A stretch of 63,195 nucleotides of DNA, counting the filler, from Rozella allomycis CSF55 (Eukaryota), in NCBI GenBank assembly GCA_000442015.1. It is 11 parts of 11 records of this genome, joined end to end, with 100 filler letters (N's around TTAATTAATTAA, not from the genome) between each part and the next. Parts side by side here need not be neighbours in the genome. Positions count along the whole stretch, not along the records: positions 25,667 to 28,133 come from KE560763.1; 10 more parts are not named here. One strand, given 5' to 3'. How positions within the stretch are numbered: position 1 is the stretch's first letter; every line of letters starts with the position of its first letter. Of the stretch, positions 1-28,242 are shown piece by piece. The notes under the pieces were generated by a model, which ran no database searches, was not told where the DNA came from, and was given only the letters and a program-made list of their open reading frames with translations. The position numbers were made by a program, and so were the translations under genes.

Positions 1-2472
1 AGAAGAAGAAGAAAGATTGGTTACAGATGTGGAGGTTGTTAAATATCCCGAAGAGATTGAAAGACCAAAGATGAAGAGTGGAAAGATTGAATATACGAAA
101 AGATTTTTGATGAGTTTTAGAGAACTTTGTTTGGATGTTCCAGTAGAAGTTTTTGATAAAATAGATTTAATATTTACAGAACAAGAAAAGAAGAAGGACA
201 TTGTAGAGTTCCAAAGAAGAAAAGAGAGAGCGCAAAACAAAGCAAATCATAGAAATAGAAGAAAGGCTCCAGTTGTAGTGAATTTGCACAAGTCAGAGAA
301 AGCATGGAAGAGGCCAAGGGATGAAGATGAGAAACAGAAATTGTATAGAGATGTTACAATAGCATTGAATAAGATTACCAGGGATAATTTTGATAAAGTT
401 TGTTCAGAAATTTTGAATATGAAAATAGATGATGATATTATTTTAGCAGGGGTTATTGACATTATTTTTGCTAAAGCTATAGATGAACCGAACTTTGGGG
501 CGATCTATGCACAACTATGCCACAAATTATCTATAGATCTAAAGATTGAAACAATTTATGATGAAGAAGCATTGAAAGCAATTAACAGTGGAAGAACAAC
601 GATATTTAGAAGAATATTATTGAATAAATGTCAACAAGAATATTCAAAGAAGCAACAATGGAAGTTGGAGGCTGATAAGGTTGTAGTAGCAGAAGATGAT
701 GAAGAAGTTGAGAGATTGAAGATTAAAAGAAGAGCTTTGGGAAATATAATATTTATTGGAGAATTGTTTAAATTGAATTTGTTGACAGAAAAGATTATTC
801 ATTTTTGTATTAATGANTTTTATTGGAGAATTATTTAAATTGAATTTGTTGACAGAAAAGATTATTCATTTTTGTATTAATGATTTATTGAAGAATCCAG
901 AAGAAGAAGAGATTGAATCTTTGTGTAAATTGTTAATAACAGTTGGATCTAAATTGGATTCAAGTCAATCTAAAAAATATGTAGATGAATATTTCCAAAG
1001 AATCAAAATTATTATTGAAATTCCTGAATTGAATAATAGATTAAGATTTAGTTTAATGGNGATAACAGTTGGATCTAAATTGGATTCAAGTCAATCAAGA
1101 AAATATGTAGATGAATATTTCCAAAGAATCAAAAATATTATTGAAATTCCTGAATTGAATAATAGATTAAGATTTAGTTTAATGGATGTTGTAGATTTAA
1201 GAAAGAATAATTGGCAATCTAAGAAGAAGGTTAAATCTGAGCCAGTTAAACAAGAAGTGAAAGAAAGAGAGACTAGAGAAAGAGGGTTTGACAAAGAGAG
1301 AGACAATAGAGAGATTAGAGACAGAGATAATAGGGAGAGAGGGTTTGAAGGTAGTAATAGGGATAGAGGGTTTGAAGGTAGAAAAAGTCACAGAGAAAGT
1401 TATTCAATAGATTCCCACAAGTTTGAAAGTAAATTTTCTAAAAAGAAGATTTTAAAGAATGAAAATCCACAAAACCCTCCAACTGTTAGATGGGGACCTC
1501 CAAAGAAGGAAAAGGAAGAAAAGAAGAATTTCTATTCAGCCCTTGAAATTGAAGAAGAAGAAAAGATAGATGAAGAAAAGGTAGAAGAAAAGGTAGAAGA
1601 CAAAGTAAATGAAGAAGAGTCACAGAAAGATGAAGAATCTTCATTGTTGAATTCATCTTTTATTAAAGAAAAGTTGGATATATTTTTAGCATCTAAAAAC
1701 TTTATGGAGATTATTGAATATGTTTCAAACTTGAATGATAAAAACAAAACATTTTTTCTTTCTGAAATTTTACTTCCAATTTTTGATAAAAGAGATAAAG
1801 AAATTGATTTAGCTTGTGAATTATTTAATAAAATTAATTCTTTATTCAACAAGGATCAAATTGAAAAAGCTTTTGAAAATGTTTGGGATATTGTGGCTGA
1901 CATTGCTATTGATGTTCCTAAAATCTATTTTTATCTCTCTAAATTATTACTACAATTAGAACCAACTATCAATGTTGATGAATTCATTCAAAATGTTTAT
2001 TTCAAAAATCAATTAATTAAAGAATTATCAAAACTTAGATCTGAAAAAATTAAAGAAAAAAATGAAAAAATAGATCAGGAAAAATCTGAAATAGATCTAG
2101 AGTCTAGACCAAAAGATATAACTAGTTTACCTTTTGAGTTTATTTCCAACAATGATAAATTATTAATTCAAAATATTCTGGAAAAGGGTCTCGTCACTTC
2201 AGAAAAAGGTCTTTCAATCAGTCCCTCACTCATTCCTCATCTCACAAAGCATTTACAATCACATTCAAATATTCATTCATTCCTTGAATTAATTCTTTCC
2301 TTTAAGAATGGTAATTTATTCATCTTTCACTCATTTAGACTCTGCTGATTCACTTTTCACCAGCTTATATGATTGCGACATTCTTTCTGAAGATGTTTAT
2401 TCTTCCTTTATGGCTAATCATTCTATTTCGGAAAAGTTAAGAAGATGGATTTTATGGTTGCAAAATAATTAA
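1..2472 (+). CDS. eIF4G: Translation initiation factor eIF4G (5' end outside window)
   Basis: eIF4E-binding YxxxxLM motif (YTKRFLM); MIF4G domain (LNKITRDNF, IFAKAIDEPNF, RRALGNIIFIGELFK); MA3-like DIAIDVPK; intron 2311-2338, then W2-like LYDCDILSED...W to TAA 2470-2472. Frame breaks at N816/N1060 are duplicated assembly joints. Confidence 0.9.
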
Positions 2473-25666: not shown

Positions 25667-26396
25667 GTGGTGGCAGGAACCCGGGTTGCATCCGGGGGTC
25701 AAAGTTTGCAACTCATGCAACTATGTTGCCAACAGGGGTTCCTACTGGTTGCCAACTTTTGTGTCACTAAACAGGTTTATTTATTATTCATTGCCTTTCC
25801 TCATAGTCGGAGTCGAATGCAGCGTCCATACCTTCTTTAAAATCTTGATCTTCGTCTTCCCATCCTTCGGGCAGCTCGTTGCTTTCATCCATAAGTGTCA
25901 GTTTCTCAACAGCAGCGTCCACATCGAACATTGTTTTCCAGATGGAGATTACGGGAGAATATTGATCGCTAGCGGTGAGGGTTGTAATGACCTGTGGGCC
26001 AGACTTACTTTGCTTGCCTCCTCTCTTTTTCGTTTCACCGTCTCGCGTGATGTGTCAATAGTGATTTGTAACCTCTTTAATTCCTCTACTGGAATTGGTT
26101 TTCCATCGTCGTCCACGCACTGCAACAAGTGTTTGACTTGCTTTGATGGAAGTTCCAACCCTTTTTTAATAAAGTGTCTATACATGTACCCCCGGCAGGG
26201 TGACCACATCTTAAGCACTTCGCATGTCCTTTTGTTTCCAATTTTTGGAAGTATTTCCATGTCCAACTCTTCTCTTTTCCAGTCATGTAGCTTAGCTCTG
26301 GAGGTTGCAATTCGGGTTGCAAATTTATTGAGAGTTGGCAACCATGGTTGCCAATATAGTTTTGCCAGCTATGGGTTGCCAACTCTGCCACCACTG
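25667..26396 (-). mobile_element. Internally deleted hAT-like DNA transposon (non-autonomous)
   Basis: Terminal inverted repeat (CA)GTGGTGGCAG at 25667 (clipped by the contig edge) and CTGCCACCACTG at 26385-26396; clustered subterminal GTTGC(C)A repeats; internal BED-finger coding remnant. Confidence 0.7.
25788..26286 (-). pseudogene. Transposase remnant: N-terminal BED zinc finger plus acidic C-terminal tail, catalytic core missing
   Basis: MTGKEKSWTWKYFQKLETKGHAKCLRCG|..KQVKHLLQC; downstream frame ...FDVDAAVEKLTLMDESNELPEGWEDEDQDF..EERQ*. Confidence 0.6.
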
Positions 26397-26482
26397 GTTA
26401 GTACTATGGTGGGAGACATGGGATTATTGCGTGTTGTAGTTTTTGACATTTTTTTGTTAATTTGAACTGTTTTATATTTATN

Positions 26483-26916
26483 TCAATGTTGGCTGGGGCG
26501 GCAGGTAAAGCTTCGTTTTACCTCCTTTATGGGGCGGCTATGCGGTATCAAGCCATACTTAACCCGGATTTCACTTAACTGTGAGTTGACGGGAGAGGTG
26601 TTAGAATTGGCGGGCTCGACTGGATGGCGGGATGCCTGGTAGGTCGGTTCAAGCCCGCAAGGGGTATCATACTAGGCGAGTGGTCTCTGCAGCCTTATCA
26701 TCATTTCTCGGCGATCGGCTCTGGTATTCACTGAAGTAAAGCTCTGCTGACGATCTCAGTATCCTTACACTCTCAGAAACACCAGGCGAGCACTGGAGTT
26801 CTTAGGCCTAGTGTGACCTCGAATACTTGTTTGTGTAACCGGAAAGCCACGTGCCTTGGGGTTTGATTCCCCCTGTCTTCGGTCTGGTTGACAGGACCGT
26901 GTAAAACAATTAATAC
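26483..26916 (+). other. Putative rDNA 5' external transcribed spacer (structured, GC-rich)
   Basis: GC-rich, hairpin-rich sequence (UUCG and GCAA loops) directly upstream of 18S sequence, ending in ACTCAAAGA as typical ETS/18S junctions do; shares a module with ITS1. Confidence 0.55.
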
Positions 26917-27021
26917 TCAAAGACGATTAGATACCGTCGTAGTCTTAACCATAAACGATGCCGACTAGGGATCGGTGGGCTTCATTTTGAACCCATCGGC
27001 ACCTTATGAGAAATCAAAGTG

Positions 27022-27100
<79 letters not shown>

Positions 27101-27132
27101 GCGGCTTAATTTGACTCAACACGGGGAAACTC

Positions 27133-27163
<31 letters not shown>

Positions 27164-27485
27164 TTGAGAGCTCTTTCTTGATTCTATGGGTGGTGGTGCA
27201 TGGCCGTTCTTAGTTGGTGGAGTGATTTGTCTGGTTAATTCCGATAACGAACGAGACCTTAACCTGCTAAATAGTTTCATGAACTTTGGTTCATTGTAAC
27301 TTCTTAGAGGGACTATCTGTGTTTAACAGATGGAAGTTTGAGGCAATAACAGGTCTGTGATGCCCTTAGATGTTCTGGGCTGCACGAGCACTACACTGAT
27401 GAAACCAGCGGGTTTATAACCTTGCCGAAAGGTCTGGGTAATCTTGTGAAATTTCATCGTGCTGGGGATAGACCATTGTAATTAT

Positions 27486-27536
<51 letters not shown>

Positions 27537-27537
27537 T

Positions 27538-27583
<46 letters not shown>

Positions 27584-27665
27584 AATGGCTTAGTGAGGCC
27601 TTCGAATTGGTGTTCACCGGCCGCAAGGTTGGATGACGCTGAGAAGTTGGTCAAACTTGGTCATT

Positions 27666-27697
<32 letters not shown>

Positions 27698-27724
27698 GAG
27701 GTGAACCTGCCGGAGGGATCATTT
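26917..27724 (+). rRNA. 18S: 18S rRNA, 3' half only
   Basis: GATTAGATACCGTCGTAGTC, AAACTTAAAGGAATTGACGG, GGTGGTGCATGGCCG, TTGTACACACCGCCCGTCG, CTTGGTCATTTAGAGGAAGTAA, GTCGTAACAAGG, GGATCATT. Confidence 0.97.
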
Positions 27725-28072
27725 TTGGGGTGTTAATTCAAGGCTTGTCATGGTTAACTTTTAAATTGTGAACTTTAACTAACGGTGGTCTCTGCTTGCT
27801 GCGACAAAAGCTCTGCCGACGATCTCGGTATCCTTTCAGTCAAAGCGCCGGTAGTTGGAACAACAAGCGCTGCGGACGATCTCCGTATTCTTACGTTCCA
27901 GCTATCACCGCGAGCACCTGGGGCTTTATAAACATAAATAATTTTTACGTTAAAGGAGTGATTGGCCTAANAGTATTCTTACGTTCCAGCTATCACCGCG
28001 AGCACCTAGGGCTTTATAAACATAAATACTATTTACGTTAAAGGAGTGATCGGCCTAACCAATCAAATTTAT
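27725..28072 (+). other. ITS1 (with a duplicated assembly joint at N27971)
   Basis: Lies between the 18S 3' end and the 5.8S start. Confidence 0.9.
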
Positions 28073-28133
28073 AGCCTTTAGCAATAGATCTCCTGGCTCC
28101 CGCATCGATGACGAACGCAGCGAAATGCGATAT
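28073..28133 (+). rRNA. 5.8S: 5.8S rRNA, 5' fragment (truncated by linker)
   Basis: GATCTCCTGGCTCCCGCATCGATGACGAACGCAGCGAAATGCGATA resembles the conserved 5.8S 5' region. Confidence 0.9.
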
Positions 28134-28242
28134 NNNNNNNNNNNNNNNNNNNNNNNNNNNNNNNNNNNNNNNNNNNNTTAATTAATTAANNNNNNNNNNN
28201 NNNNNNNNNNNNNNNNNNNNNNNNNNNNNNNNNCCCAATCCA

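Follow-up and report, generated by a model that had tools for sequence, protein, structure and literature searches.

Does the pre-rRNA of the early-diverging fungal parasite Rozella allomycis CSF55 carry the same folded RNA module on both sides of its 18S rRNA? This question is raised by a short rDNA scaffold for which the original prediction proposed a covarying module with CGATC hairpin loops, present once in a putative 5' ETS and again in ITS1, and interpreted it as a selected RNA element. The window analyzed here is the whole stretch of DNA, 63,195 bases long, and consists of a chain of small scaffolds with linkers of the form N44-TTAATTAATTAA-N44 between them. The scaffold under study and its main divisions, in window coordinates, are the following:

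25667-28133, no strand assigned: studied scaffold of 2467 nt, bounded by two N44-TTAATTAATTAA-N44 linkers
25667-26481, no strand assigned: piece 1 of the scaffold, non-rRNA, possibly intergenic spacer
26483-26907, plus strand: spacer-like segment of 425 nt, fused gap-free to mid-18S
26908-27718, plus strand: 3' half of the 18S rRNA gene (RF01960, model positions ~990-1831)
27719-28072, plus strand: ITS1, between the 18S 3' end and the 5.8S start (Rfam)
28073-28133, plus strand: 5' part of the 5.8S rRNA (RF00002, 51 bits, model positions 1-68 of 154), cut by the scaffold end

The position of the modules relative to the rRNA genes was established with Rfam. The model SSU_rRNA_eukarya (RF01960) matched 26856-27718 on the plus strand with 828 bits. 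Within this alignment, 602 and then 359 model positions were skipped, and a continuous alignment began at approximately position 985-990 of the 1831 model positions, which corresponds to ~26897-26908 in the window. According to Rfam, the 5' half of the 18S gene (approximately 1 kb, the 5' end included) is absent from the scaffold. A eukaryotic 5' ETS lies directly before the 5' end of a complete 18S gene, and no 18S 5' end was found in the scaffold. The 425 nt that contain the upstream copy adjoin the middle of 18S in a scaffold made of three pieces, and what lies between the modules is no more than the 3' half of 18S. The assignment of the upstream copy to the 5' ETS and the placement of the module on both sides of 18S were therefore not sustained. 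The predicted ITS1 location of the other two copies was confirmed, as these hairpin units (27807-27898) lie between the end of the RF01960 match at 27718 and the start of the RF00002 match at 28073, both on the plus strand.

The 3' terminal helix of the 18S fragment (27686-27718) differs from the usual eukaryotic sequence by a U-to-G change in the 5' strand and an extra C in the 3' strand. As these changes would stay paired, the fragment looks divergent but functional, not decayed. At 26878-26915, CTGGTTGA and CTCAAAGA occur 24 nt apart immediately ahead of the 18S homology, and the same 8-mers are found at the same spacing at the canonical 18S 5' end. The 24 nt between them are unrelated to the canonical counterpart, and the match in spacing is probably a coincidence. 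Rfam searches of 25800-28140 at E<=10 returned only 18S and 5.8S, all other matches being far below gathering scores, and the 425-nt segment yielded no family match at E<=10. The prediction had also suggested a comparison of the module with Rfam and considered a ribozyme, and no family, ribozymes included, matched the module, which leaves ribozyme activity unsupported. The Rfam tRNA match in the window is located on another scaffold. A tRNA-like origin was considered for the GGTTCAAGCCCGC stretch of the upstream segment and was rejected, ARAGORN finding no tRNA.

The reliability of the scaffold was assessed from its joints. Single n's at 26482 and 27971 join the three pieces. At 11 of the 31 single-n joints in the window, the last 29-179 nt of the left piece recur immediately behind the n, and these flush repeats are unmerged contig overlaps. 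Several other single-n joints show offset repeats. Any tandem repeat or frameshift beside a single n of this assembly is suspect. One such case is an ORF on another scaffold (813-2345, plus strand) with MIF4G and weak MA3 domains (eIF4G/NOM1-like), which is broken by single-n joints at 817 and 1060. The joint at 27971 belongs to the flush overlap type. The stretches 27885-27970 and 27973-28058 differ by 4 mismatches over 86 nt (95% identity), and the repeat search detected a repeat of 86-88 nt across the n that spans 27885-28058. Since this joint is an unmerged contig overlap, what looks like a tandem repeat in ITS1 is an assembly artefact and the true length of ITS1, with 27973-28058 being the second overlap copy, is approximately 266 nt. 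The four mismatches between the overlap copies indicate that at least two ITS1/rDNA variants were present among the reads. An overlap was also looked for at the joint at 26482 and none was found.

Piece 1, which precedes the upstream segment, provided few landmarks. A Pfam search of its minus-strand ORFs gave no domain match, and a protein search with the minus-strand ORF found no homologue besides its own record (hypothetical protein, Rozella allomycis CSF55), so that this ORF may not be a gene. A BED-finger reading of the minus-strand ORFs was dropped, as neither a Pfam match nor homologues were found. On the plus strand, the stretch ~26388-26440 ends in a T-run and resembles the 3' third of a eukaryotic 5S rRNA gene. 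Its identity as 5S rRNA was rejected, the Rfam 5S model giving no match at E<=10, so that the stretch could be no more than a 5S remnant that is truncated or degenerate. Such a 5S-like fragment, if real, would fit an rDNA intergenic spacer. A strong inverted repeat of GGTTGCCAAC-type motifs is found at 26331-26386 and the same motifs are present again at 25668-25757. This inverted repeat obtained weak scores for several miRNA-precursor models, all far below thresholds.

Within this frame, three hairpin units and two modules were delineated:

26738-26772, plus strand: hairpin unit, upstream copy, with the stem-loop at 26745-26761, the loop CGATC at 26751-26755, an AAG/CTT lower stem and a CTC/TC internal loop
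27807-27841, plus strand: hairpin unit, ITS1 copy 1, with the stem-loop at 27814-27830
27864-27898, plus strand: hairpin unit, ITS1 copy 2, with the stem-loop at 27871-27887
26679-26794, plus strand: upstream module, composed of the outer 5' strand (26679-26690), a decayed unit 1, an intact unit 2 and the outer 3' strand (26786-26794)
27784-27918, plus strand: ITS1 module, composed of the outer 5' strand GGTGGTCTCTGC (27784-27795), two hairpin units and the outer 3' strand GCGAGCACC (27910-27918)

All three stem-loops were recovered with the strings and positions that had been described for them, namely TGCTGA-CGATC-TCAGTA at 26745-26761, TGCCGA-CGATC-TCGGTA at 27814-27830 and TGCGGA-CGATC-TCCGTA at 27871-27887. 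In each unit, a lower stem of 3 bp is followed by a small asymmetric internal loop, an upper stem of 6 bp and a terminal loop of 5 nt, and all three have the internal loop AAG-CNC ... TY-CTT in common. The repeat search defined a single family of three 35-nt copies, with 89% and 80% identity to the first. The pattern CTGCNGACGATCTCNGTAT was found with up to 3 mismatches at exactly three sites in the 63,195 bases, which are the three units (chance expectation 0.09; three matches in 0 of 100 shuffles). In every minimum-energy and centroid fold of the plus strand, the hairpins formed, whether they were folded by themselves, within the modules or within the complete ITS1. The loop CGAUC, which holds the self-complementary GAUC, was unpaired in all folds of all three units, which means that each predicted stable hairpin exposes a self-complementary loop as a kissing-loop element would.

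The compensating stems that had been predicted were verified in a three-row alignment of the units, in which all 27 pair cells hold a standard pair and the column pair 17-27 reads U-A, C-G and G-C in the three copies. A G-U pair in columns 15-29 is kept in each copy. Read on the other strand, this pair would turn into a C-A mismatch, which assigns the structure to the rRNA-sense (plus) transcript. The retention of this pair, which was not corrected, also argues against templating or correction of the palindrome at the DNA level.

A shuffle control of the alignment is without power at three rows (83/500), and a neutral star simulation was run with 0, 4 and 7 random changes in 35 nt (400,000 trials). 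All 27 cells stayed paired in 0.3% of the trials, and all cells stayed paired together with at least one double change in 0.14%. These values bear on a neutral explanation, in which the units are functionless leftovers of spacer duplication and rDNA rearrangement that look conserved because they are young or gene-converted. Such an origin is compatible with the decay of unit 1 in the upstream module and with the internal ITS1 repeats reported for other taxa. The five invariant loop bases fit it as well, not being significant alone because only 8 of 35 columns vary and an unchanged loop is expected about a quarter of the time. What speaks against neutrality is that 11 differences from the consensus break none of the 27 pair cells (P about 0.003), that the single changed stem position was altered twice with its partner changed each time, and that the G-U pair was retained, contrary to templating by a DNA-level palindrome. 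Functionless leftovers are considered a fairly unlikely explanation, and the hairpin unit, judged from its sequence and predicted folds, is probably an RNA-level, plus-strand element under pairing constraint. The proposal that the module is a selected RNA element was accordingly upheld with respect to strand and pairing constraint, to which folds, alignment and simulation all point; the selection claim itself rests on three paralogues of one genome and a single covarying pair, as a neutral origin would also allow.

The organization of the complete modules was compared between the two locations. The plus-strand fold of the ITS1 module (27786-27920) reached -45.1 kcal/mol with a z score of -2.53 (2 of 200 shuffles as good), and the minus-strand fold had a z score of -0.40. 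Both ITS1 hairpins persist in the fold of the whole ITS1. A 12-bp helix of 27850-27861 with 27895-27906 lengthens ITS1 unit 2 and is lacking in the upstream module. For the outer strands, GTGGTCTCTGC has exactly two sites in the window (26680 and 27785), and GCGAGCAC is found at 26786 and 27910. The strands of the predicted common outer helix are thus present in both modules, but whether its A..T versus G..C change is compensatory hinges on the register. For the ITS1 stretch from 27786, in which two 5' G's are left out, RNAfold gave a register where the 3' change would be one from G-C to G-U and the 5' A/G position would be unpaired.

A global alignment revealed that the two modules are collinear over their full length, from an ACTA lead-in through the outer 5' strand, unit 1, unit 2 and the outer 3' strand to CTGG. 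Upstream unit 1 has kept CGATC at 26712-26716 and has lost its stem through indels. Given this collinearity and the missing unit-1 stem and 12-bp extension, the upstream copy is a partly decayed paralogue of the whole ITS1 domain. On the plus strand, the upstream module folded no better than shuffles (z +0.43) and the whole 425-nt segment gave no thermodynamic signal (z -0.67), the minus strand of the segment being slightly better (z -1.89). Conservation between the modules is patchy, with 11/12 and 8/9 positions kept in the outer strands, 28-31/35 in one hairpin and linkers that are unalignable. With its stems and one hairpin preserved, this pattern is more readily explained by an upstream copy that still functions than by a neutral relic, and it is the strongest reason to think that the copy may remain in use.

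The explanation to which we give slightly better than even confidence is that ITS1 holds a duplicated structural domain, of which a paralogue lies in an rDNA spacer that is partial, rearranged or misjoined. The two tandem ITS1 units inside the outer helix constitute one folded domain, located about halfway from the end of 18S to the start of 5.8S. It arose by internal duplication, its pairing is probably maintained at the RNA level, and it may help ITS1 to fold or to be recognized by the factors that cleave it. The third copy is part of the collinear, partly decayed paralogue of the whole domain, carried by the 425-nt segment that is joined to mid-18S. The join itself is not an intact boundary of 5' ETS and 18S. 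It could represent a partial or rearranged rDNA unit (a copy with an internal deletion, an orphan copy or the edge of an array) or, in a fragmentary scaffold built from short reads, a mis-join such as an assembly or library chimera. Its position within a single gap-free piece argues against a simple scaffolding error. The best DNA sequencing runs share 0.67 of the sampled words of 26483-27970, and the share of 18S plus ITS1 is 0.72; a word share of 0.67 would fit an absence of the upstream 425 nt, and neither value was counted as evidence.

The order of the scaffold, with a non-coding piece followed by spacer, 18S, ITS1 and 5.8S, is that of a normal rDNA unit minus approximately 1 kb. The segment could consequently be a genuine 5' ETS, and the order fits a partial or rearranged unit as well as a genuine 5' ETS with the 5' half of 18S lost. 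In the latter case, the 18S 5' half would have been lost by deletion or in assembly, and the modules of the 5' ETS and of ITS1 would form a matched pair of sites for recognition or interaction, through which the cleavages on the two sides of 18S are coordinated. An arrangement of IGS, ETS and 18S is consistent with the observed piece order, and piece 1 may be non-coding spacer, its ORF having no homologue besides its own record. In addition, stems and loops were kept and linkers diverged. The missing 18S 5' end, the direct contact of the segment with model position ~990, and an upstream module with one decayed unit and no fold signal are in conflict with a true 5' ETS.

A possible interaction between the two flanks was evaluated by duplex prediction. 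The best duplex between 26795-26907 and 27719-27783 pairs 26853-26873 with 27726-27744 at -31.7 kcal/mol, a possible but marginal pairing, as 14 of 300 mononucleotide shuffles did as well. Over their full length, the flanks showed no pairing beyond that of shuffled sequences (45 of 200 as good). Pairing between the modules was matched by 4 of 300 shuffles, a signal that is trivial because two homologous hairpin sets are involved. A 4-nt GAUC palindrome in a 5-nt loop would be a poor kissing partner.

Relatives that could lend comparative support to matched 5' ETS and ITS1 sites were not found in the metagenome, prokaryote-genome or viral collections. A metagenome scan with a 19-nt hairpin pattern returned 87 loci, all of them chance matches and none sharing more than 27 nt with the scaffold. 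The two N positions were complementary in 20 of the 87 (approximately 22 expected), and both flanking motifs were present in none and one of them in 2. A longer hairpin pattern had no match among either the prokaryote genomes or the viral contigs. Searches of the open-access literature yielded nothing relevant to Rozella spacers or to modules that ETS and ITS1 share. A true 5' ETS with matched recognition sites is considered unlikely.

The abrupt boundary between the segment and perfectly conserved 18S, inside one gap-free piece, would also be expected if the 425 nt were the 3' part of an insertion in 18S, either an intron or an internal spacer that splits 18S, carrying an ITS1-like processing module. 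In the cmscan alignment, the neighbouring 18S helix can still draw 4 bp of its 5' strand from the final bases of the segment, which would suit such an insertion. This possibility is highly improbable, as no group I intron or other family was detected at E<=10 on either strand of 25800-28140 and nothing in the segment is 18S-like; we also know of no description of a nuclear split SSU rRNA. If the segment were transcribed upstream of SSU rRNA, as a 5' ETS or as the internal spacer of a split 18S, the same module would stand on both sides of the released rRNA piece, and one factor might recognize both flanks through the invariant CGAUC and the internal loop. We regard this scenario as quite unlikely.

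With the duplicated ITS1 domain as the preferred explanation, the finding amounts to an ITS1 hairpin that was duplicated and underwent compensatory change in an early-diverging fungal parasite. It can inform structure models of ITS1 and serves as a caution on rDNA scaffolds in draft assemblies. If the same module were truly present in the 5' ETS, it would provide a testable handle on the coordination of cleavages on both sides of 18S.

Three known systems invite comparison. The Rozella hairpins resemble retroviral dimer initiation sites in that their loop is self-complementary, here through the tetranucleotide GAUC, and the hairpin is present in several copies. Retroviral kissing loops have 6-nt palindromes in 9-nt loops, whereas the Rozella loop has 5 nt with a 4-nt palindrome. 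The processing stems of bacterial and archaeal pre-rRNA (RNase III stems, bulge-helix-bulge) share with the Rozella locus the idea that the two flanks of the SSU rRNA are recognized together, and the flanks of the Rozella 18S fragment carry homologous modules and pair weakly. In bacteria and archaea, the two flanks are complementary and form one helix. In contrast, the Rozella flanks are homologous and each folds on itself, their pairing is equalled by 14 of 300 shuffles, and the 5' flank stands beside a partial 18S. To our knowledge, no eukaryote has been described in which 18S is flanked on either side by homologous recognition modules, and a true case would be a eukaryotic analogue of the prokaryotic marking of 16S ends, with homologous instead of complementary flanks. 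The third comparison is with the helices and internal repeats of eukaryotic ITS1. Rozella departs from these in having a further collinear copy of the domain outside ITS1, beside a truncated 18S, and in having no family model in Rfam. It agrees with them in the location between 18S and 5.8S, in hairpins closed by a long-range helix, in duplication within the spacer and in compensatory change.
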